Source: Endomicrobiales bacterium
Lineage (GTDB): Bacteria > Elusimicrobiota > Endomicrobiia > Endomicrobiales > JALOBY01
DNA length: 64,000 nt
Direction: 5' to 3'
Assembly (NCBI GenBank): GCA_963796955.1
Contig: CAWCNJ010000004.1
Coordinates: 352,001-416,000 of the forward strand
The translations under genes were made by a program, and so were the position numbers. This document shows, piece by piece, positions 50,551-61,799 of the stretch. A model generated the notes under the pieces. That model was not told the origin of the DNA. It saw nothing but the letters and a program-made list of their open reading frames with translations, and searched no databases. Position 1 is the stretch's first letter. Every line of letters starts with the position of its first letter.

Positions 50551-52434
50551 ATGACCTCTAAACGCGTCGCATTAACGATCCTGTCGGTGTTGTCGTTGCT
50601 TTGCGCGTTGAGAGTTCTGTCCCCTATTTTCAAACAATCGGCCACTTTTGACGAGGGCGTGAAGATCGGGGCAGGTTACGCTCAGTTCAAACAGCACTAT
50701 TTTCTGTATGACCACCGCAGCCCTCCTTTTTCCAAGTTCCTTATTTCATGGCCGTTGCTGTTGCTGAACCCGTCCATTCCCGTGCCCGAGCCCGCACTCG
50801 CCGCACAGGATCCCGCGTTTTTTAAAGACCACTTCCCGTTCGGTTATCGGTTCCTTTTCAACAACCGGTTGCCAGCTGATACCATGCTGGTCTACACCCG
50901 GCTGGGCGTTTGGGGTGTATATGCATCAGGCGGGATATTTCTTTTTCTTTTTCTGTATAGAAAATACGGGCTTTCGGCCGCGGCTATCGGCAATGTCTTG
51001 TATTTTCTGTGCCCTGATATCGCGGCCACCGCCGCAGTCGCGACAAGTGACATTCTTGCCATAGTCTTCGCCATACCCGTGGTGATAGCAGCCATATCTC
51101 TATATGAAAACCCATCCCGTAAGAATGCCGTTATTGCCGGGATCGCGCTGGGGCTTGGCGTCTGCACAAAATACTCCCTGCTTATATTCATACCGTTGTT
51201 CGCCTACATCCTTTTTAAATTCTATCTGCGAAAGGCAAAAGCATCGGAACTGGCGGTATACGGTACCATCCTCATTGGCTGCCTGTTGTTCATTATCGAA
51301 GCGAATTATCTTTTCATGGACCCGTCGGCGATCTACGGCATGATACACGAAACCCTGGATGTGGTGACCGGCGCACGGATGTCCTATTTCCTCGGCCAGT
51401 ACACGACCGGCGGCTTCCTGTATTATTTCCCGCTGGCGATACTGCTTAAAACCCCGCTCCCCGTGCTCGCCGCGGCCGCCTATGCCGTGTATTTGTACGT
51501 GACAAAAAAGGGATGCCGCGAACCCGCTGCAGAGATAACGGGCCTGGCGATAGTGCTTTTGGCGGGTGTTTCGATATTTTCAACGCTGGATCTGGGTATA
51601 CGCTATATATTGCCCATTTATCCTCTTGTCTTTCTGTTCATCGCAATAGTCCTGCACCGTTCAGTAGTAGATCACAAAAAGCTGGCGGCTATTTTTCTGT
51701 GTCTCGTTATTTCCAACGTTATGGTACATCCGCATTACCAGTCTTATTTCAATCTGCTGATTGGGAAAAATGAGAATGCCTACAAATATTTCGCCGATTC
51801 AGCCGTCGATTGGGGCCAGGACCTGAAAGAGCTGGGTGAATATCTGAAGAGCGAAGGCAGCCCGGAATTAACGCTCTCATATTTTGGCACCGCGAGCCCG
51901 AACTACTACGGTATTCAATATCAGAACCTTGAATCCAACGGTTTGGACGCAGTCTATGATAATACCCGGTACCGGCAGATCAACAGCGACACCCCGAGAA
52001 GGGAACTGCTTGCGGTCTCGGCGACCTGCCGTATTGGCGTTGACTACCCGAACCACCATTGGTTCGATTTCCTGAACGAACTTAAACCCATAAGGGTCAT
52101 TGGAAACTCCATATTCGTTTATGACATAACCGGCAACGTCAGCACATATAAACATATCGCGCAGATCTATTACGAAAGCAGGCATCAGGTGCATCTGCTG
52201 CGGTGCGGCAGGGTCATAGCAGGTCTTGATCCAGCCGATCCGTTCGGAAAGTCCGCCGTCGAGGCCTCGCAGGCAAAATACCGGACGTATTACGATCTTG
52301 GCGTACGCTACGAAAGATCGCATGATCTTACCAACGCCCGTAAGGCTTACATTGCGGCCCTTGCCTTTAAGCCGGGCGACGCGCAGGCTATCGCCGGTCT
52401 TCAAGATGTTCAAGCATCCAAAGAGGTTAAATGA
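50551..52434 (+). CDS. GT-C fold membrane glycosyltransferase (GT39/PMT-like) with C-terminal TPR
   Basis: SATFDE, many TM helices, KTPLP, RYILP, DS..DWGQ; terminal TPR. Confidence 0.82.
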   Translation: MTSKRVALTILSVLSLLCALRVLSPIFKQSATFDEGVKIGAGYAQFKQHYFLYDHRSPPFSKFLISWPLLLLNPSIPVPEPALAAQDPAFFKDHFPFGYRFLFNNRLPADTMLVYTRLGVWGVYASGGIFLFLFLYRKYGLSAAAIGNVLYFLCPDIAATAAVATSDILAIVFAIPVVIAAISLYENPSRKNAVIAGIALGLGVCTKYSLLIFIPLFAYILFKFYLRKAKASELAVYGTILIGCLLFIIEANYLFMDPSAIYGMIHETLDVVTGARMSYFLGQYTTGGFLYYFPLAILLKTPLPVLAAAAYAVYLYVTKKGCREPAAEITGLAIVLLAGVSIFSTLDLGIRYILPIYPLVFLFIAIVLHRSVVDHKKLAAIFLCLVISNVMVHPHYQSYFNLLIGKNENAYKYFADSAVDWGQDLKELGEYLKSEGSPELTLSYFGTASPNYYGIQYQNLESNGLDAVYDNTRYRQINSDTPRRELLAVSATCRIGVDYPNHHWFDFLNELKPIRVIGNSIFVYDITGNVSTYKHIAQIYYESRHQVHLLRCGRVIAGLDPADPFGKSAVEASQAKYRTYYDLGVRYERSHDLTNARKAYIAALAFKPGDAQAIAGLQDVQASKEVK

Positions 52435-54689
52435 ACAAACGTAATATCTTTATATTTATTTTAGCTCTTGCCGTGGCAAGCAGCTTCAGATTAGTAGTGC
52501 CGTTGGTGCGCCAATCCGCGACCTTTGACGAGCCCTTTAAAATAGCTTCTGCCTATCTGCTGGTAAAAGACGGCGCTTTCGATTACGCCACCTGGGACCC
52601 GCAGATAATCTTCAACCCGCCGCTTTATAAATACCTGATCGCCCTGCCCCTGCGCTTGCTGGATCCTGAGATACCCCGCCCTTCTCCTCAGATGGAGATG
52701 AAGGGCCGCCCCGGCTATTTCGCGAACGCCTTCGCCTTCGGCTATCGCTTCCTGCACGAGAACAGGGTACCCGCTCAAAAACTGCTTATCTATAGCCGCG
52801 TCAGTTCTCTGGCGCTCTATATTGCGGGCGGCATTTTGTTGTTCTTCCTGCTTAAGATCCTTTTCGGCGCGGAGCCCGCCCTGATATTTATGGTATTATA
52901 TTTTCTATGTCCGAACCTGGCGGCCTCGGCGGTCCTCGCGACCAACGATATCCATGCCGCGGTGCTTGCCGTTGTGTACACCGCGCTATTGCTGCTGTTC
53001 ATGAAAAAGCCCGGCCGCCTCTACACTGTCTTGATAGCTGCTGCCTTTACCCTCGGTATCTGCACAAAGGTCACGTTTGTTTTGCTTGCTCCCTTATACG
53101 CGGTCGCGTTGGTGCTTATGTTCCGACATAAAAAAGTTACGCCCCGCCAGGCTGCTATATTTACGGCCTACGCCGCCATAACCTGCGCCCTTCTGCTTGA
53201 AATAATATTCCAGTTCCTGGAACCCGCCGCTATTATCGGTATGTTCAACAGCGCCATGCACATAACGGGCATCAAACTGCTCTATTACGCCCTCGGCAAA
53301 TATTCTTTTGAGGGATTTTCCTATTACTTTCCGCTCGCGTTTTTGCTGAAAACTCCGCTGCCGGTGCTCGCGCTGCTGGGGTACAGCCTCTACCTTATTT
53401 ATCGCGAGAAGGCATATAAGGAAGATGCCGTCATTATTATTTTCGCCGGTATACTTACTTTCTTAATAACAGGTATCAACTCCCGCTTGAACGCCGGCCT
53501 CCGGTATATATTGCCCGTGTACCCGCTATCCTTTATGCTGATAGCAGCAGCCATGCGCTACAAGCCGAAGATGCGCCTTGAACTTGCGGGTTCCTTGCTG
53601 GCCGCCCTGCTGGTCTCAAACTTTCTGGTCCACCCGCACTACCAATCTTATTTCAACGTGCTGATAGGAAAAAATGACAACGCCTATAAATATCTAGTCG
53701 ATTCTTCTCTGGACTGGGGGGAGAACGTTGGTGACCTGGCGAAGTATTTGAACGAGACCGGCTCGCCGGAACTGCTGCTTTCATATTTCGGCAGCGCCGA
53801 TCCCGCTTCCTACGGCATTACCTATCAGGACCTGGGCTGCGACGGCCTGGACCTGGCGCAGGACGATAAGCGCTTCATGCACGTAAACTCCGACAACCCC
53901 GCGAAAGAATACTGGGCCGTTTCCGCCACCAGCCTGGTCGGCTTAAATTATCCCGACCACAACTGGTTCGCCTTCCTTAAAGACCGCGAGCCGGTAAAAG
54001 TGATAGGCAGCAACATCTTTATTTATGATATTACCGGCAACGCTGCCATTCACCGCAGCATTGCGGGGGTATATCTGCAGATGGGCCGCATGGCACAATT
54101 TCTGCGGGAAGGCCGCACCATCCTTGCGCGCGCACCCGGTGATACTCTGGGCATGCTGTGTCTTTCGATCTCTGAATACGGCCGCGACAAAGCCAAAGCC
54201 GCCGATATCCTGAAAGGAACAGCGCTTACGCCGGCCACCCTGGTCGCCGATAACGCCCTTCCAATGAATGCTGCCATGACCTACACCGGCATCATGGTAC
54301 AAAACAAAGATTTCAAATCCGCCCACGCCTTGATTACCAGACTGCTTGACGCCAAGATCTCACCATACGAGACCCGTTTGTATAATTTAAACGGCGTCGC
54401 CTACCTGCGGGAAAAAGACCTCCCAAAAGCAAAAGAGAATTTCGAAAAAGCGATAAACAACGAACCAACCTATCCGGTTTCATACTACAACCTCGGCCTG
54501 GTATCTGAAAAATCGGGTAACCTGGAACAGTCAGTTGGTTTATACCGCAAAGCCCTGGCCTACAACCCAAAGTTTGTCCCTGCGCTTAGAAAACTGCGTG
54601 CCCTGCAACAACAATATTCCAAGAACCATCCCGCTCCCCAGCGCCCAGAAGGCTCTGCGATCGCTCCTGATTCTGAAATGTTGCAATAG
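52431..54689 (+). CDS. GT-C fold membrane glycosyltransferase (GT39/PMT-like) with C-terminal TPRs; paralog of the upstream gene
   Basis: Same motifs (SATFDE, YYFPLA.LLKTPLP, HPHYQSYFN.LIGKN, DWG), plus TPRs (YYNLGL). Confidence 0.82.
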   Translation: MNKRNIFIFILALAVASSFRLVVPLVRQSATFDEPFKIASAYLLVKDGAFDYATWDPQIIFNPPLYKYLIALPLRLLDPEIPRPSPQMEMKGRPGYFANAFAFGYRFLHENRVPAQKLLIYSRVSSLALYIAGGILLFFLLKILFGAEPALIFMVLYFLCPNLAASAVLATNDIHAAVLAVVYTALLLLFMKKPGRLYTVLIAAAFTLGICTKVTFVLLAPLYAVALVLMFRHKKVTPRQAAIFTAYAAITCALLLEIIFQFLEPAAIIGMFNSAMHITGIKLLYYALGKYSFEGFSYYFPLAFLLKTPLPVLALLGYSLYLIYREKAYKEDAVIIIFAGILTFLITGINSRLNAGLRYILPVYPLSFMLIAAAMRYKPKMRLELAGSLLAALLVSNFLVHPHYQSYFNVLIGKNDNAYKYLVDSSLDWGENVGDLAKYLNETGSPELLLSYFGSADPASYGITYQDLGCDGLDLAQDDKRFMHVNSDNPAKEYWAVSATSLVGLNYPDHNWFAFLKDREPVKVIGSNIFIYDITGNAAIHRSIAGVYLQMGRMAQFLREGRTILARAPGDTLGMLCLSISEYGRDKAKAADILKGTALTPATLVADNALPMNAAMTYTGIMVQNKDFKSAHALITRLLDAKISPYETRLYNLNGVAYLREKDLPKAKENFEKAINNEPTYPVSYYNLGLVSEKSGNLEQSVGLYRKALAYNPKFVPALRKLRALQQQYSKNHPAPQRPEGSAIAPDSEMLQ

Positions 54690-54714: not shown

Positions 54715-56061
54715 TTAGCTCAGGATTTCTAGGATGCTCTTTTTGACGATATTGACCATGCGGGATATTTCCGGATTGGTAATGGTTATTGGTGGCATAA
54801 GCACAAGGGTATTGCCGAGGGGGCGGATGATAAGGCCTTTGGGGCGGCATGCTGCGCAGATACGGGCACCGATCCTTTCTTTAGCGGGGAAATCTTTCAG
54901 CGTAATGCGGTCCTTTGCAAGTTCAATTCCAGCCATTAAACCAACTTGCCTTACATCAACGACATTCGGCAAATCCTTAAGTGAAGTAAGTTGCTTTCCC
55001 AGGTGTTCTACCTTGGCCGGCAGGCTTTCAATAATTCTGTCTTTCTTAAGGATGTTGATGGTTGCAATGGCAGCGGCGCAGGCAAGCGGATTTGCTGTGT
55101 ATGTGTGGCCATGAAAAAAAGTTTTAAATTCCTCGTAACATCCTAAAAAACCTTGGTATATCTTTTCATCGGTCAGGGTAACGGCAAGAGGCAGGTAGCC
55201 TCCCGTGATGCCTTTTGAAAGGCACATGAAATCGGGCTTAACGCCTTCCTGCTGGCAGGCAAACAATGTTCCTGTCCTACCAAAACCCGTTGCCACTTCA
55301 TCGGCTATTAGCAATATTCCATATTTTCTGCAAAGTGCGGCGAATGCCTTAAGATATCCCGTAGGCATTTTTATCATACCGCCTGCCGCTTGCATAAGCG
55401 GCTCAATAATAGCTGCTGCTATATTTCTTCCGTTAGTTTGTAATATCCTTTCTACGTCCTGAAGGCACTGATGCTTGCAATTCCCCTGGTGTTTGCAGCG
55501 CAGGCAGTAAGGCGACTGCGCAAAGTGTGTTTTAAAGAACAGCGGCCCGAATTTGGCGTGGTATATATCGATGCCGCCGACGGCTGAGGCACCGATCGTG
55601 TCGCCATGGTAGGCGTTGCGCAGGGCAAGAAAAGTTGTTTTACCTTTGTGGCCTGTTTGCAGCCAATACTGATACGCCATTTTAAGAGCTATCTCAACGG
55701 CGGTAGAGCCGTTGTCGGAATAATAGACTCGGGAAAAACCTTTTGGCGCGATAGCAATGAGCATTTGTGAAAGTACGGCGGCGGGTTCGTGCGTAAGACC
55801 AAGGAACGTGGTGTGCGCAACCTTGTCCAACTGTGTTTTTATTGCCTTGGTTATCGCAGGGTGGCGGTGGCCAAGCAGATTGCACCAGAGAGAGGAAACT
55901 CCGTCTATATATCTTTTGCCGTCAGTGTCGTAAAGATAAATACCTTTAGCACGGCTTATGGCCAGAACAGGGGAGGGCGCGTCTTTCGCCCAATCGGCCA
56001 TCTGGGTGAACGGGTGCCAATTATATTTTTTGTCGAGCGCTACGATCTCTTTTGAATTCAC
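54715..56061 (-). CDS. bioA: Adenosylmethionine-8-amino-7-oxononanoate aminotransferase
   Basis: WHPFTQM, DGVSSLW, YHGDT, ADEVATGFGRTG, SKGITGGYLP, HGHTY. Confidence 0.96.
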   Translation of the reverse strand: MNSKEIVALDKKYNWHPFTQMADWAKDAPSPVLAISRAKGIYLYDTDGKRYIDGVSSLWCNLLGHRHPAITKAIKTQLDKVAHTTFLGLTHEPAAVLSQMLIAIAPKGFSRVYYSDNGSTAVEIALKMAYQYWLQTGHKGKTTFLALRNAYHGDTIGASAVGGIDIYHAKFGPLFFKTHFAQSPYCLRCKHQGNCKHQCLQDVERILQTNGRNIAAAIIEPLMQAAGGMIKMPTGYLKAFAALCRKYGILLIADEVATGFGRTGTLFACQQEGVKPDFMCLSKGITGGYLPLAVTLTDEKIYQGFLGCYEEFKTFFHGHTYTANPLACAAAIATINILKKDRIIESLPAKVEHLGKQLTSLKDLPNVVDVRQVGLMAGIELAKDRITLKDFPAKERIGARICAACRPKGLIIRPLGNTLVLMPPITITNPEISRMVNIVKKSILEILS

Positions 56062-56071
56062 AGGGGATGTG

Positions 56072-56765
<694 letters not shown>

Positions 56766-56771
56766 GATACC

Positions 56772-57791
56772 TTATCTAAAAATAATTATAGTCGATATGT
56801 AACCCAGGTAAAACAGCCCCAGAAAAAGCGCTGTGTAAGGTGATAACTTTTTACGGAATTTAACTTCGGCCAACATGATCAACGCTGATGAAAGGGCTAT
56901 TATCGCCGATAACAACGGAAGGCCTTTTACCTGCCAGTCGGTAAGGAGCAATCCTACTGAAACGGGGAACGTCGCCTGAAATACCATGGCTCCCGTAATA
57001 TTGCACATCGCCAACGTGTCTTTGTTCTTCAGTGTCCAGGTTATGGAGTTGAATTTTTCAGGCAGCTCGGTGGCAATGGGTGCGACGATCAAAGCGAAAA
57101 GCATCGGGTCAAAACCGAAATAAGCACAAACGTCAGATATCGAGTTTACAAAAACCTGGGCGCTGCCGACCATGATAGCCAGGGTGGAAACTCCCTGGAT
57201 TATTATCAGCCACATCCGGCTGTGTTCGGGCTCGGCCATTCCTAACTTCCCGAGTAAATTGCTAAGGTGCAGGTTGCCGTCATGCTCTACATCCGCGCTG
57301 TCGGCTTTCGCGGTTAAGTGAATGTAGTAGCCGTAGCCAAGGATAAGTAGAACAGCCAAAGGTATTTTTATGGAGTGCCCGAGTACCATCGGAAGAAGAA
57401 CGGCTGAGCCGTACAGGATAACAAAGAACGTCAGATCCCTTTGAACGGATCTGTATTCCAGGTTCAACGAAAATTTGCGGCGGCCTAATAAATAGGTTAC
57501 CAGCGCGGTCACGCCGACAAGGCAGGTGGTAAGCGTTGACAGCATGAACGGGGCGCCGAGAATAGCGCCGACACCGATCTGATCGCTGGTCTCTTTTGAG
57601 TCCATCAGTATGGCCACGAGCGGCAATATGGTTTCCGGTAAGGCGGTACCGACAGCCGCGAACACGCTGCCGACAACAGCCTGCGACAATTCCAGTTTTC
57701 TGCCAAGGGCCTCAACCGAATTCGTAAATCCCTCGGCGGCGGCAAGGATGGCAAGAAGGCTGACGATCAGCAGCACTATCGAAAATAGCAC
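56772..57791 (-). CDS. Ca2+:cation antiporter (CaCA / sodium:calcium exchanger family)
   Basis: Two alpha-repeats GTALPE and ATELPE, about 10 TM helices. GTG 57791 follows a GGAG that overlaps the end of bioF. Confidence 0.85.
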   Translation of the reverse strand: MLFSIVLLIVSLLAILAAAEGFTNSVEALGRKLELSQAVVGSVFAAVGTALPETILPLVAILMDSKETSDQIGVGAILGAPFMLSTLTTCLVGVTALVTYLLGRRKFSLNLEYRSVQRDLTFFVILYGSAVLLPMVLGHSIKIPLAVLLILGYGYYIHLTAKADSADVEHDGNLHLSNLLGKLGMAEPEHSRMWLIIIQGVSTLAIMVGSAQVFVNSISDVCAYFGFDPMLFALIVAPIATELPEKFNSITWTLKNKDTLAMCNITGAMVFQATFPVSVGLLLTDWQVKGLPLLSAIIALSSALIMLAEVKFRKKLSPYTALFLGLFYLGYISTIIIFR

Positions 57792-57793
57792 GG

Positions 57794-58905
57794 TTACTCC
57801 TTGATCAGACCTATCAACGTATCGATATGTTCGTCGGTGTGGTCGGCGGTTACGGAAAAGCGTATGCGGCACTGGCCGTCGGGCACCGTGGGCGTCCGGA
57901 TGGCCGGCGCGTATATAGTATGCTCTTGCAGCAAACCGGCTAACTCCTGCGCGCTCGCCGCGGTCCCTGTTATAAGGGGGATGATCTGGCTTTGGCTTCC
58001 GGCTATGTTTTTACCGGCGAGAGTGAAAGCTTCTCGTACGCGTCGAGCGTTAGAAAGCACCCGCGCTCTCAAATTCGGTTCTGTTTTGATTATCTCGATG
58101 GCTTTCAACGCCGCTGCCGCGTTCGCCGGAGCCAGGGCGGTGGTATAAATAAATGAACGGGATTTGTTGATCAGATAGTCCACAAGTTCCGTGGAACCGC
58201 AGACGTACGCTCCCTGCGAGCCTATTGCCTTGGAAAGCGTTCCCATTATTATATCAATTTTTTCGCTGAGATTGAACTGCTCCGCAAGGCCCGCGCCATT
58301 CGCCCCGAAAAGGCCGGTGGCGTGCGCTTCATCAACCATGGTCAACGCCCCGTACATCGCAGCAAGTTCGACGATACTATCAAGCGGTGCCATGTCGCCG
58401 TCCATGGAAAAGAGTGTGTCGGTTATCACAACCTTCTTTTTATAGCCTTTGGCCCGTTTGAGCACTTTTTCAAGGCTGTTCATGTCGGTATGTGCGTACG
58501 GGAATATGCGGGCGCCCGAAAGTTTCGCGCCGTCCCAGAGGGATGCGTGGTCGAGGCGATCCATAATAATGCAATCGCCGCTGTTGAACAGAGAACTGAT
58601 TATGCCAAGGTTCGCCTGATAACCGCTGGGGTACACCAGCGCCGCCGGTGTGTATTTGAAGGCCGCCAGTTCCTCTTCCAATTGCCGGTGTATCGCCATA
58701 GTGCCGGAAATAAGGCGGGAAGAAGTGCCGCCGGTCCCGAAGGTGTGCAGGGCATCAACAGCAGCAGCGATCATTTTGGGGTGGTGGGAAAGGCCCAGGT
58801 AGTCGTTCGAGGAAAAATGTATGTCTGCCGGTCGCGCGTGTCTAAGGGTGCGGTACAATCCTATCGTTTTAGCTGCTCCAATTCCTGGCGCATGAAGTTT
58901 TGCAC
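57794..58905 (-). CDS. bioF: 8-amino-7-oxononanoate synthase (apparent 1-bp frameshift at 58867-58870)
   Basis: SSNDYLGL, SGYQAN, HASL.DG, FSMDGD, DEAHA, TLSKA. One extra A restores the N-terminus (GTG)QNFMRQELEQLKTIGLYRTLR. Confidence 0.93.
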
Positions 58906-58913
58906 GGATAGCC

Positions 58914-60044
58914 TCAAAGTCTGCGCGCGCTCAGCACGCCGATCTGGCCGCCGAAGCCGAAGGAGAGCGACATAGCGGTTGTGACGGCGCGGCGGCGGCT
59001 TAAGTGCGGCGTATAGTCAAGATCGCAGTCAGGGTCGGCAAAATGCAGGTTCAGTGTCGGGGGAATGGTGTTATCCCGCATGGCAAGCAAAGAAATGCCG
59101 AACTCTACGGCGCCCGAAGCGCCAAGCAGATGGCCGGTCGCGGCCTTTGTGGATGATACGGAAATGCCCGCTGCGTTCTCGCCAAAAGCCTGTTTGATCG
59201 CCAGTGATTCGGCCCGGTCGTTTTGTGTTGTCGCGGTGCCGTGGGCGTTAATATAGTCCACCGTGGTTTGGCCGGTCATTTTAAGGGCGTTGCTGATAGC
59301 GCCGGAGATGCTTGTACCATCCGGTGTGAACGAGCAGGGCATATGGATATCGTTAGCCATCGCCCAGCCGTTAAGTATGCCATACACCTTCGAGCCCCTC
59401 AGCAAGGCGTGGTGTTTGTTCTCCAGTATCAAAATGCCGGCGCCTTCGCCTATGGCGAAACCCTGGCGGTTCCTGTCAAAAGGCCGCACCTGGTCTTTTG
59501 CCAGCACGCCCATCTTGTTAAAGCCGGCTATGTATAACGGGTGCAGGGAAGATTCCGCGGCGCCGGCGATAACCACATCGCACACACCATCGCGTATCCA
59601 CTGGGCGCCCAGCATTATGGAATGTGTTCCGGTCGCGCAGGCGGCGCTGATAGAGCGCAGGGGGCCGCGCAGCTTCAATATTCTGTAGAGCTGTTCGCCG
59701 ACGGCGCCCGGATAGTAGGCTTCATTAAAGGGGATACTGCGGACATCTGAACTCGCTAAGTTTGGTTTGCTGGCGCTTACGGTGCATCCTATGCGGGCGG
59801 CCGCGATCTCATGCAAATTCATCTTTGCATCATCAACGGCCTCAGCCGCCGCCAGAAAGCTCATGGAGAGCAGGCGCAGTTCGGGGGGAAAAGACAGACC
59901 CTCGACAGAGGCCGAAACAATGCCCGGAAAAAGAGGATTATCCTTAACGGCGCTCGCTGAGGCAGTAAGCGCGGCCCAGGTCTTTTCCCGGCCAATGCCA
60001 AGCGGCGTCACCATCCCAATACCTGTTATCGCTACTTCGTTCAT
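58914..60044 (-). CDS. Beta-ketoacyl-ACP synthase (FabF/FabB-like) within the bio operon
   Basis: Cys-His-His triad (AACATG, YINAHGTAT, TGHLLGA), RPFD, GEGAG, SFGFGG. ATG 60044 after AAGGA. Confidence 0.9.
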   Translation of the reverse strand: MNEVAITGIGMVTPLGIGREKTWAALTASASAVKDNPLFPGIVSASVEGLSFPPELRLLSMSFLAAAEAVDDAKMNLHEIAAARIGCTVSASKPNLASSDVRSIPFNEAYYPGAVGEQLYRILKLRGPLRSISAACATGTHSIMLGAQWIRDGVCDVVIAGAAESSLHPLYIAGFNKMGVLAKDQVRPFDRNRQGFAIGEGAGILILENKHHALLRGSKVYGILNGWAMANDIHMPCSFTPDGTSISGAISNALKMTGQTTVDYINAHGTATTQNDRAESLAIKQAFGENAAGISVSSTKAATGHLLGASGAVEFGISLLAMRDNTIPPTLNLHFADPDCDLDYTPHLSRRRAVTTAMSLSFGFGGQIGVLSARRL

Positions 60045-60077
60045 AATTTCCTTTACGACCATTCGCAATCGCTCATA

Positions 60078-60809
60078 CTACAACAGCCTTGAATCCCAAT
60101 TAAAAGTTTGACCCGAAATTGTTTTTGTTGACGCCAGCATTACTACGAACTGTGCCAGTTCGTGTATATCTGTTGTCGTTTTGAGTACGCTGTCTTCCCT
60201 GCTTTGTTTTATATAATTTTCGCTGGCATGAGCGCCCATGCCGGACAGGTGAAAGCCGGGCATTACGGAGTTGACGCTAATTCCGTGTTCACCGAGCTCA
60301 ACAGCTGCTTGCCTGCTTAGTTCAATAAGCGCGCCTTTCGCGGCGGCATAATTGGCCGAGCCCGCCATGCCTTTGATGCCGCCTATGGAAGCAATGTTTA
60401 TTATGTTGCCGGAGTTTTGAGAGATCATAGCCGGGGCGCAGGCGCGGATCATGTTCCAGGGGCCCTTCAGGTCTGTCTCTACTACCAGGTCCCAATGCGC
60501 CTCGTCCATCCTTGAGAGGGAAGAATTATGGCATACGCCGGCGTTGTTGATAAGGGCGTCGATACGTCCGTACTCATCTAAAACAGATTCTATCATTTTA
60601 TGTACCGTATTTGAATTCGAAACATCCGCCTGAAACGGTTTCGCTGTGCCGCCGAGCGTCTTGATCTTCCGGCAGAGAGCTTCCGCCTGTTCCGCCGAGG
60701 TGTGATAGTTTACCGTTACCGCCCATCCTGTCCGGGCAAATGTTTCAGCCAAAGAGCTGCCGATACCCCGGGCTGCGCCGGTAATAATGACCGTTTTCGC
60801 ATTATTCAT
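60078..60809 (-). CDS. SDR oxidoreductase (FabG-like) within the bio operon
   Basis: TGAARGIG, NNAG, NIAS, YAAAK; overlaps the bioB stop. Confidence 0.88.
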   Translation of the reverse strand: MNNAKTVIITGAARGIGSSLAETFARTGWAVTVNYHTSAEQAEALCRKIKTLGGTAKPFQADVSNSNTVHKMIESVLDEYGRIDALINNAGVCHNSSLSRMDEAHWDLVVETDLKGPWNMIRACAPAMISQNSGNIINIASIGGIKGMAGSANYAAAKGALIELSRQAAVELGEHGISVNSVMPGFHLSGMGAHASENYIKQSREDSVLKTTTDIHELAQFVVMLASTKTISGQTFNWDSRLL

Positions 60810-61764
60810 TTATTGTTAAACCAAGATCGGTTATCATTTGAATATCGGTTTTGGGTGAGCGTCCGGGTGTGGTAAGATAGCCGCCGGTCATGGTGCCGTT
60901 CGCGCCGGCGTAAAAGATCCAGGAAAGGCAATCCCGCAGGTTCGTTTCCCTGCCGCCGCAAACGGCGATGTCCTTGTCCGGCATGATGAAACGGAAAATG
61001 GCGACAGTGCGCAGGATATCGGCGACAGGTAAGGGGCTGGTGTTCGCCAGAGGAGTGCCTTCGATGGGGTTGAGTATGTTAATGGGAATAGAATCAACAT
61101 CAAGCTCCCTGAGCGTTAAAGCGAATTCCACCCGCTGCTGTGCGTTTTCTCCCATACCGATTATGCCGCCGCTGCAGATTTCCAGGCCTGCTTCTTTCGC
61201 CAGGCGGATCGTGCGCAGTTTATCGTCGATCGTGTGGGAGGTGCAAATGGAGGGGAAATAGCTGGGCGCTGTTTCCAGGTTGTGGTGAAAACGGTACATG
61301 CCGTGTGATTTGAGTTTTTCAAGGGATCCTTTATCCATAACGCCGAGCGAGCCCGAGATACCTATCTTAAGATGCTGTATCTTGTCGAGAGCCTTGCAGA
61401 CGACCTCCGTTTCATCATCGGTCAACGAGCGGCCGCTGGTAACGATGCCAAAACATTTCGCGCCGGCATTGGCCGCCTGCGTGCAGGCTTTGACCAGTTG
61501 TTCTTCGTCGACAAGCGGGTAGGTGGCGACAGAGGTCTTATTATGGGAGGATTGGGCGCAATAACGGCAGTTTTCAGAACAACTGCCGGATTTGGCATTG
61601 ATGATGCTGCACAGGTTGATGGCATTGCCTTTGAAGTGTTTACGCAGGCGATTGGCCTGATATAACAGCTCGTCATAGTCGGCGCTGAGGAGCGCTGTTG
61701 CTTCGGTCTCACTGATGCGGTGGCCGTTAATGATCCTGTCTGCTAAAGCTGTTGATCCTGTCAT
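60802..61764 (-). CDS. bioB: Biotin synthase
   Basis: CSENCRYCAQS radical-SAM motif, HHNLET, CSGGIIGMGE, GGYLTT. Confidence 0.96.
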   Translation of the reverse strand: MTGSTALADRIINGHRISETEATALLSADYDELLYQANRLRKHFKGNAINLCSIINAKSGSCSENCRYCAQSSHNKTSVATYPLVDEEQLVKACTQAANAGAKCFGIVTSGRSLTDDETEVVCKALDKIQHLKIGISGSLGVMDKGSLEKLKSHGMYRFHHNLETAPSYFPSICTSHTIDDKLRTIRLAKEAGLEICSGGIIGMGENAQQRVEFALTLRELDVDSIPINILNPIEGTPLANTSPLPVADILRTVAIFRFIMPDKDIAVCGGRETNLRDCLSWIFYAGANGTMTGGYLTTPGRSPKTDIQMITDLGLTINE

Positions 61765-61767
61765 GTG

Positions 61768-61799
61768 TTGTTAACCTCTAAAAATGTTGTGGTTGACAA
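61768..61799 (-). promoter_or_regulatory. BirA operator upstream of bioB
   Basis: Palindrome TTGTCAACC-N14-GGTTAACAA on the coding strand, overlapping the bioB RBS. Matches the TGTnAAC-N16-GTTnACA BirA box. Confidence 0.82.

Follow-up and report, generated by a model that had tools for sequence, protein, structure and literature searches.

The final steps of biotin synthesis are shared almost universally, but where the pimelate arm comes from is unsettled in many lineages; BioF requires a pimeloyl thioester. One described system comparable with the ketosynthase (KAS) considered here is BioZ of the α-proteobacteria: according to excerpts of PMC7645780, PMC8024396 and PMC12625853, it is a bio-operon condensing enzyme that replaces BioC/BioH, a role in which the present KAS appears to resemble it, and Ser/Arg residues at the end of its tunnel hold the carboxylate (PMC8024396, in the same excerpted form). 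Another is the Desulfovibrio cluster DVU2558-DVU2565, in which FabF- and FabG-like genes lie in a BirA-controlled bio operon without bioC or bioH, and the genes of which were needed in the absence of biotin in transposon fitness experiments (PMC545781, PMC10102598). The structural reference is housekeeping FabF (KAS II; TIGR03150), for which the available portion of PMC9006962 places the I108-F202 gate at around C7-C8 of the bound chain, and describes an I108F substitution that caps elongation at C6 to C8.

The window analysed, a stretch of 64,000 nucleotides, carries on its minus strand an Elusimicrobiota operon arranged as BirA site-bioB-SDR-KAS-bioF-CaCA-bioD-bioA (Table 1), the KAS and SDR of which probably build the seven-carbon arm of biotin without the methyl-ester route. 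Gene calls and family profile scores both reproduced the minus-strand gene order given in an earlier sequence-only reading, and none of the operon's genes proved to be a known pimelate gene, as that reading had also maintained; its operon list needed correction for a frameshift in bioF and for the CaCA gene. The former, a one-base shift placed by the reading frames in a short A run (58867-58870) at the 5' end of the gene, is probably an assembly error, because about 5 of 90 gene-sized loci having a homologue are also frameshifted in this indel-prone assembly (completeness 81.46%). The CaCA gene found no match at any of 40 related loci; it has been inserted locally and probably plays no part in the pathway. 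The last gene, bioA, is convergent with a flanking TPR/glycosyltransferase gene, and a promoter and terminator scan at the operon ends returned nothing above chance.

Table 1. Features of the biotin operon, in positions of the window
Feature	Position	Strand	Details
BirA-type operator TGTTAAC-N16-GTTGACA	61769..61798	.	4 bases upstream of bioB ATG
bioB, biotin synthase	60802..61764	-	TIGR00433 398 bits, cut-off 225
FabG-like SDR, 243 aa	60078..60809	-	S141/Y154/K158; H187; C-terminal D-S-R241
FabF-fold KAS, 376 aa from ATG	58914..60044	-	C136/H268/H305, Lys93 at FabF Ile108 back gate
Lys93 codon, motif S-x-S-K	59766..59768	-	aligned with E. coli FabF Ile108
bioF, 8-amino-7-oxononanoate synthase	57794..58905	-	TIGR00858 436 bits, cut-off 426; 5' end frameshifted
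CaCA-family cation antiporter	56772..57800	-	PF01699
bioD, dethiobiotin synthase	56072..56710	-	TIGR00347 178 bits
bioA, DAPA aminotransferase	54715..56061	-	TIGR00508 559 bits; operon end

The operator pattern occurs twice genome-wide against an expectation of some 0.2 from base composition, recurs at the operon head in seven related loci, and resembles the BirA sites in Table 1 of PMC545781. A BirA of 331 aa bearing an HTH is encoded on contig C8 and would repress the operon. At five loci in Nitrospirota the KAS gene stands alone and directly adjoins a BirA-type site, with Ser-Ser-Arg at the gate in all three of those genes whose gate region was read.

The earlier description of the KAS as a 376-residue protein of the FabF/B rather than the FabH type, with a Cys-His-His triad, was borne out in each respect. 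By sequence and structural model, the protein has the FabF fold (Z ~62, rmsd 1.5 Å over 375 residues, against FabF/KAS II structures PDB 4LS5 and 1KAS), and on alignment its triad corresponds to C163/H303/H340 of E. coli FabF, with K300 equivalent to K335 and F364 to F400. Fold, triad and the last two residues are thus common to both enzymes; by way of contrast, the KAS scored 299 bits against the TIGR03150 cut-off of 494, falls in a separate clade, and has Ser92-Lys93 in place of G107-I108, so that the hydrophobic Ile108 gate is replaced. Lys93, which the alignment places in the acyl pocket at the C7-C8 gate, is also the basic residue that the sequence-only reading had suggested looking for there. 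In addition, Tyr171 occupies the position of FabF Gly198, and the helical region following the gate is shorter by about 20 residues. Among 160 aligned homologues, lysine stands at the gate in 155, H268 and H305 in all, and K300 in 159. A family profile confined to residues 55-185 separated the family from FabF (at least 106 bits versus at most 97), whereas the full-length K/R profile A2 gave no separation, a full-length profile search against protein representatives brought up modular polyketide synthases in such numbers that it was of no use, a single-protein locus scan recovered mostly housekeeping FabF, and the ESM Atlas returned generic ketosynthase clusters only. One member of the clade, P0112, has no basic residue at the gate.

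The SDR possesses the Rossmann glycine motif of FabG 3-oxoacyl-ACP reductase and its catalytic Ser-Tyr-Lys residues (S141, Y154 and K158), among which the YxxxK had been noted previously, and scored 203 bits against TIGR01830, below the cut-off of 298. It departs from FabG at N145/Q148, replaced by M148/S151, and at the C-terminal DGG, replaced by D-S-R. The resultant R241 is present in all 47 SDRs that adjoin a Lys-KAS, where all 43 housekeeping FabG proteins have Gly, and H187 is present in 42 of the same 47.

Compared with BioZ, the operon likewise lacks bioC and bioH, and both enzymes are alike in combining a basic residue with serines at the end of a pocket for a free ω-carboxylate, a function that in the KAS is predicted. 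They differ in that BioZ is a FabH-type enzyme with a Cys-His-Asn triad and a CoA primer, while the KAS, which shows neither the FabH/KAS III fold nor that triad, is a FabF-type Cys-His-His enzyme accompanied by its own reductase, and places its basic residue at the Ile108 gate. With the Desulfovibrio-type cluster, the operon shares FabF- and FabG-like genes, BirA regulation and the lack of bioC and bioH; however, an ACP and two FabZ-like genes belong to that cluster itself. The window has none of these, nor are they conserved in the 40 related loci, and the cluster's FabZ-like and ACP proteins, taken from the Oleidesulfovibrio cluster L503, found no counterpart in the present genome beyond the housekeeping ACP. 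The L503 KAS, the one representative on which this comparison rests and which stands in for DVU2563, scored 44 bits on the family profile, under most housekeeping FabF proteins (48-87 bits), and fell outside the Lys-gate clade on a long branch; the L503 SDR is 25% identical to that of the window. Since this KAS is 27% identical to that of the window and its gate carries neither Lys nor Arg, the operon would not seem to be simply a reduced Desulfovibrio cluster. The precedent of fab-like genes in Desulfovibrio bio operons, which the sequence-only reading had mentioned, has gained genetic support (PMC10102598), but the one KAS examined represents a different enzyme lineage.

Elsewhere in the genome, a housekeeping plsX-fabH-fabD-fabG-acpP-fabF locus is present on contig C8 (34-35% identical), establishing that the operon pair is not the sole fabF/fabG. 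Genes for ACP, FabZ and a FabK-like enoyl reductase lie outside the operon, in line with the proposal that housekeeping FAS II parts are borrowed. Within this 81% complete genome the best BioC match reached 52 bits against a cut-off of 185, and neither BioW, BioH, a P450 nor a BioG/BioK-like protein was found; hence neither an alternative route elsewhere nor a lack of other fabF/fabG genes, the two computable outcomes named beforehand as contrary to the proposal, was encountered. The weak BioC-like matches were attributable to other methyltransferases (UbiG-like, arsenite methyltransferase), and a second FabH paralogue on contig C5 was rejected as a BioZ, being part of an ACP-SDR-acetyltransferase cassette that is distant from the bio genes.

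Comparative data strongly support a link between this KAS and the supply of pimelate. Among 40 loci of KAS relatives, 36 contained bioF and 35 the SDR, most of the absences falling at contig ends; and in a generic KAS scan of 80 loci, bioB or bioF lay near 18 of 19 Lys-gate genes versus none of 61 with Ile, Val or Met at the gate. The SDR-KAS-bioF module was also found in Omnitrophota and FCPU426. Of 151 Elusimicrobiota genomes, 41 contained the KAS, 13 a full-length BioC and none both, and within one family the corresponding figures were 23 and 5, although these counts include related genomes that are not independent and so overstate the evidence. The profile of KAS against BioC proposed in the sequence-only reading was thus one of mutual exclusion. 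In the same family, strong bioF matches were confined to KAS-bearing genomes (22 of 23), the bioF of the remaining genome being cut by a contig end. In other groups, 13 of 201 Planctomycetota genomes have a Lys-KAS, one of which adjoins a bio gene; a Flavobacterium bio operon ends in a Ser-Ser-Arg KAS; and 301 genomes from the phylum to which G151 belongs (record name Thermodesulfobacteriota) yielded no Lys/Arg-gate member, the four matches of 95-100 bits there looking like ordinary FabF, with Gly-Leu at the gate in the three that were read.

The best full-length family match of the window KAS (residues 3-372) is the cyanobacterial PRK05952/NF004618, against which it scored 258 bits, below the cut-off of 455. 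All 30 PRK05952 sequences read have Ser-Ser-Arg at the same gate, and with the motif columns removed the family grouped with the Lys clade at an SH-aLRT of 96, in quick trees for which this was the sole measure of support. Among 54 photosynthetic cyanobacteria, 47 carry PRK05952 without BioC, six have BioC instead, and one (G228) has neither and also lacks bioB and bioD; independent pairs numbered two on starred branches and five on the best tree, with none against prediction (sign test p 0.5). The two enzymes are therefore alike in their S-S-[R/K] gate, shared clade and exclusion of BioC, and differ in that PRK05952 deploys Arg rather than Lys and is encoded alone, with no partner SDR and, in the loci read, without any bio gene closer than 1.5 kb. 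In most photosynthetic cyanobacteria, the equivalent role may fall to this sister enzyme. On balance, we lean towards regarding FabF-type KAS proteins with an S-S/x-[Lys/Arg] gate as a single, broadly distributed family of pimeloyl-ACP synthases that has no name as yet and extends across Elusimicrobiota, Omnitrophota, FCPU426, Planctomycetota, Nitrospirota, flavobacteria and most photosynthetic cyanobacteria, the cyanobacterial member of which would supply the missing first step of biotin synthesis. Such a role for PRK05952 would realise an old proposal that three malonates are condensed with a carboxylate left free, and points to a gene open to testing in a cyanobacterium that serves as a model: Synechocystis slr1332, which we take to be probably a member and which is presumably the gene currently labelled as a second FabF. 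A search that did not extend to subscription papers or bioRxiv supplements found no paper assigning the Lys-gate KAS family or PRK05952/slr1332 to biotin synthesis.

It is likely that the window KAS is a dedicated condensing enzyme of biotin-precursor synthesis acting on acyl-ACP primers with a free ω-carboxylate, and because it would accept such primers, methylation by BioC and demethylation by BioH would not be needed. The methylation-independent KAS/reductase route put forward from the sequence is thereby supported by the comparative data, while the primer and the number of cycles are matters that we infer; we regard a malonyl-primed, two-cycle chemistry as about evenly balanced. In this scheme, Lys93 would neutralise the free carboxylate of the chain on Cys136, first malonyl (C3) and later glutaryl (C5), and close the pocket to C7, so that two condensations with malonyl-ACP would yield 3-oxoglutaryl-ACP and then 3-oxopimeloyl-ACP. 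The SDR, bearing His187 and the invariant Arg241, would reduce these carboxylated 3-oxo intermediates, housekeeping ACP, FabZ and the FabK-like enoyl reductase would complete each cycle, and pimeloyl-ACP would pass to BioF. As described in an excerpt of PMC7645780, E. coli FabG, FabA and FabI carried the product of BioZ on to pimeloyl-ACP in vitro, and housekeeping enzymes can therefore handle a free C7 carboxylate. What the proposal offers is a candidate route of two genes, a hypothesis that turns on one residue (Lys/Arg at Ile108) and a marker by which such sequences can be annotated; if right, it would show a FabF pocket rewired for dicarboxylic chains, with a bearing on the production of pimelate and other diacids in cells.

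The alternative that differs from this scheme only in its primer would have the KAS act as a BioZ-like enzyme in a FabF body, condensing once a glutaryl-CoA or -ACP drawn from another pathway with malonyl-ACP before reduction by the SDR. A glutaryl chain would place its carboxylate near the C7-C8 gate (PMC9006962, as far as its available text goes), and BioZ is a proven precedent for glutaryl priming (PMC7645780 and PMC12625853, both in excerpt); yet no glutarate-supplying gene was conserved across the 40 loci, FabF-type enzymes normally take ACP primers, and a dedicated reductase would seem superfluous given that, in the excerpt of PMC7645780, E. coli FabG served BioZ. We consider such priming rather unlikely, though deserving of real weight. 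A greater departure, which we judge improbable, is that the pair makes a short ordinary acyl-ACP, for example octanoyl-ACP for lipoate, or is a fatty acid module merely sharing BirA control. That a blocked Ile108 gate yields C8 products (PMC9006962, available text), that LipA is encoded in the genome, and that the cyanobacterial and most planctomycete members lie apart from bio genes are all compatible with this; but the gate residue is charged rather than bulky and hydrophobic, KAS and BioC are mutually exclusive in two phyla, the KAS tracks bioF within a family and is absent together with bioB and bioD in G228, and KAS genomes would be left with no known source of pimelate.

The incomplete assembly could conceal a BioC/esterase or BioW route for which the pair is a passenger. 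The BioW search covered this genome alone; however, full-length BioC was found in none of the 40 further Elusimicrobiota genomes that carry the KAS, the majority being more than 90% complete, and no extra gene is conserved at the 40 related loci, making a concealed route highly improbable. Slighter still is the chance that the KAS has a transacylase or retro-Claisen activity, by which a dicarboxylate made beforehand would be loaded onto ACP or trimmed rather than built up: a carboxylate-binding pocket would fit equally well, and acyl transfer is among the half-reactions of KAS enzymes, but the near-invariance of the decarboxylation histidines and K300, and the co-conservation of a ketoreductase, argue for the condensing role preferred here.

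Some individual KAS genomes count against the proposal: the SDR is absent beside the KAS at one intact locus (L063), G022 has a split KAS together with intact bioF, bioD, bioA and bioB, and in G085 and G099 bioF is located elsewhere in the genome.

In the biotin operon of the window, the FabF-like ketosynthase (KAS, 376 residues) and the adjacent FabG-like reductase (SDR) quite probably form the dedicated part of a route to pimelate, in which primers with a free carboxylate would be accepted by the KAS, the SDR would act beside it with ACP, FabZ and enoyl reductase borrowed, and the resultant pimeloyl-ACP would pass to BioF.

Features of the biotin operon, in gene order on the minus strand, and of its flank
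Feature	Position	Strand	Remark
Palindrome TGTTAAC-N16-GTTGACA	61769-61798		immediately ahead of bioB
bioB	60802-61764	-	over NCBIfam cut-off
SDR	60078-60809	-	203 bits, below FabG cut-off of 298
KAS	58914-60044	-	299 bits, below FabF cut-off of 494
bioF		-	over NCBIfam cut-off
bioF, frameshifted 5' end	58858-58905	-	one base, in a short A run
CaCA antiporter	56772-57800	-	between bioF and bioD
bioD		-	over NCBIfam cut-off
bioA		-	over NCBIfam cut-off
PMT-family glycosyltransferase-like membrane proteins, two in tandem, each with a TPR tail	50551-54689	+	converge on bioA

The AlphaFold model of the KAS (mean pLDDT 96) matched FabF with a Z of ~62 and an rmsd of 1.5 Å, and C136, H268, K300, H305, F175 and F364 corresponded to C163, H303, K335, H340, F202 and F400 of E. 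coli FabF. The sequence-only reading had proposed that the acyl pocket be inspected for a basic residue, and alignment to E. coli FabF located one, K93, at the position of I108: G107-I108 is replaced by S92-K93, and G198 by Y171. Among 160 aligned homologues, K93 was retained in 155, S92 in 156 and Y171 in 135. According to PMC9006962, FabF I108 and F202 form a gate near C7-C8 of the bound chain, and the I108F substitution restricts elongation to C6 to C8; the top PDB match of the KAS was a B. subtilis I108F mutant. A lysine at the gate would be well situated to contact the carboxylate on a short dicarboxylic chain, and to stop growth at seven carbons. Condensation of three malonates is an old proposal, doubted on account of hydrophobic FAS pockets (PMC7645780), an objection that a basic gate residue would answer. 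The SDR retains its catalytic residues, and carries a C-terminal Arg241 (47/47, versus Gly in 43/43 FabG sequences) and His187 (42/47).

Searches of the assembly (2.1 Mb, 11 contigs, 81.46% complete) extended to the genome the absence of known pimelate genes noted for the operon: the best BioC match, at 52 bits, fell short of the 185-bit cut-off, BioW, BioH and P450 searches gave no match, and BioG-, BioK- and BioW-like queries found nothing. A BioC or BioW route hidden in this incomplete genome is considered the less likely explanation. Nor are the operon KAS and SDR the sole copies of their kind, a housekeeping plsX-fabH-fabD-fabG-acpP-fabF locus being located on contig C8, to whose products they are just 34-35% identical. 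An acyl-CoA dehydrogenase gene (apparently frameshifted) and etfB/etfA lie directly 3' of that locus (G000:C8:242589-245882), possibly coding for an enoyl-reducing or glutaryl-handling activity. A second FabH paralogue sits in an unrelated ACP-SDR-acetyltransferase cassette (G000:C5:234121-236834), which probably serves acylation of surface polysaccharide.

The main variant of the proposed route is a single glutaryl-primed condensation as in BioZ (PMC12625853, PMC8024396), likewise a condensing-enzyme route to pimelate and of the same logic, the window enzyme being FabF-based instead. The genome has genes for FabZ and a FabK-like protein, and also for LipA. Deployment of the KAS/SDR pair in octanoyl-ACP synthesis is considered less likely than pimelate formation, as is a KAS engaged in pure acyl transfer, against which the complete catalytic set and the neighbouring reductase count. 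Condensing-enzyme routes as such being known from BioZ, the novelty of the pimelate route favoured here would lie in its FabF-type enzyme; a literature search found no paper on this KAS family.

The names of homologues assign the organism to Elusimicrobiota. Regions around the KAS taken from 40 genomes of that phylum contained bioF in 36 cases, SDR in 35, bioA in 25, bioD in 24 and bioB in 21, with no conserved ACP, dehydratase, methyltransferase or esterase. Absences mostly reflected contig ends, the real exceptions being L063, which lacks the SDR, and genomes G085 and G099, with bioF elsewhere; bioB was present in all five genomes checked, in four of them apart from the KAS locus. A generic KAS pattern picked out 80 named loci, nine of which lay beyond the script's pattern and were classed from alignments: 18 of the 19 with a Lys gate, Omnitrophota and FCPU426 included, have bioB or bioF nearby, as against none of the other 61, with Ile, Val or Met. 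At one locus (L540:4314-5437, genome G022) the Lys-gate KAS is split into two frames, with SDR, bioF, bioD, bioA and bioB intact, which points either to a pimelate step beginning to decay or to an error of sequencing. Around bioF, relatives hold different unrelated inserted genes (TPR/glycosyltransferase-like, YjbQ, a 257-residue protein); the CaCA gene occurs in none of the 40 loci.

A profile of KAS residues 55-185, which tells the family from FabF, detected one copy each in 41 of 151 Elusimicrobiota genomes; full-length BioC occurred in 13 (nine over cut-off), and no genome held both. Profiling of the pair against absence of BioC had been suggested in the sequence-only reading; the counts come from related genomes and are not independent. 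In one family the KAS is present in 23 genomes and BioC in five, where it adjoins a bioF-like and an esterase-like gene.

The fab-like genes of Desulfovibrio bio operons, cited earlier as a precedent, hold as such in outline only. For that cluster, a pimelate route of a new kind was put forward by Rodionov et al. (PMC545781), and transposon fitness data later showed its FabZ-, FabG-, ACP- and FabF-like genes to be required without biotin, the chemistry being left open (PMC10102598). In the one such cluster compared, from Oleidesulfovibrio (L503), the KAS shares 27% identity with that of the window, has the gate sequence G-S-G-P-N-L, in which there is no basic residue, reaches 44 bits with the family profile and sits on a long branch apart from the clade, and the SDR is 25% identical; the resemblance is therefore one of outline, and the comparison offers no support for descent.

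Among protein families, PRK05952, a cyanobacterial beta-ketoacyl-ACP synthase family with S-S-R at the gate in all 30 members read, gave the window KAS its best full-length match. A quick tree placed Lys and Arg sets, together with one Gly-gate sequence (P0112), on one side of a branch (SH-aLRT 99), and with motif columns removed the cyanobacterial and Lys sequences still grouped together (SH-aLRT 96). Nitrospirota and Flavobacterium SSR proteins took no resolved position in the motif-stripped tree, and a single origin of all these sequences was not rejected (AU p 0.72).

The survey covered 121 Cyanobacteriota genomes, 54 with psaA, large genomes being scored for 20 BioC candidates each. PRK05952 was present in 47 of the 54, all with bioD and none, within those candidates, with full-length BioC; six lacking PRK05952 each have, within a bio cluster, a BioC-like gene of full length that scores below the curated cut-off, and one (G228) lacks PRK05952, BioC, bioD and bioB. 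Another 48 genomes, none with psaA or PRK05952, have BioC over cut-off. When 32 of the 54 were placed on a psaA tree, five changes were required to explain the pattern, only two of them forced by well-supported branches, and formal significance is therefore not reached. Counting against a biotin link, the PRK05952 loci read had no bio gene within 1.5 kb and no BirA-pattern match. Pimeloyl-ACP synthesis is described as undetermined in Synechocystis, a cyanobacterium without BioC or BioH (PMC7133116); slr1332 (404 residues, 30% identical to FabF), listed under unknown proteins in that paper's supplement and treated as FabF in another (PMC5798194), would be the PRK05952 member there. These results are chiefly of value for the candidate they provide, open to direct testing, for the missing step of cyanobacterial biotin synthesis. 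One photosynthetic cyanobacterium without PRK05952 (G172; L354, L359) holds a full bioF-esterase-bioC-bioD-bioA-bioB cluster and a second, stand-alone bioD, the pattern that displacement of an older route by an acquired operon would produce.

In five Nitrospirota loci (L462, L489, L490, L493, L517), a BirA-type site abuts or overlaps the start of a stand-alone KAS, with S-S-R in the three read and a split copy in L490; the gene is divergent from a RodZ-like gene. Four such genomes were searched: bioF was over cut-off in all and BioC in none, two having BioC matches of 81-88 bits and uncertain identity. Another Nitrospirota locus (L516:5071-9652) holds a bioB-bioW-bioF-SDR-bioD operon, its FabG-like SDR 37% identical to that of the window, with no KAS. 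A Flavobacterium bioF-bioD-bioA cluster ends with an SSR KAS. Family members occurred in 13 of 201 Planctomycetota genomes, with Lys read in 12 and only one adjoining bioF; a conserved gene of 150-170 codons precedes the Lys-KAS in 6/13 (L565-L576).

The palindrome ahead of bioB is similar to the sites listed for BirA in PMC545781; the genome has two copies, where ~0.2 would be expected, and the palindrome also heads the operon in seven related loci. Two biotin-carrier proteins are encoded, as well as a BirA whose N-terminal region is of the DNA-binding type. The second copy (G000:C8:508367-508397) is intergenic, upstream of a 113-residue membrane-protein frame, a possible biotin-regulated gene. 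The bioF frameshift is likely an assembly error because frameshifts also affect ~5 of the 90 gene-sized loci that have homologues, among them what we take to be murA, coaB/C and clpB; a downstream TTG start would preserve the conserved YRxLR motif. The gltB gene, directly right of the window, is also frameshifted.
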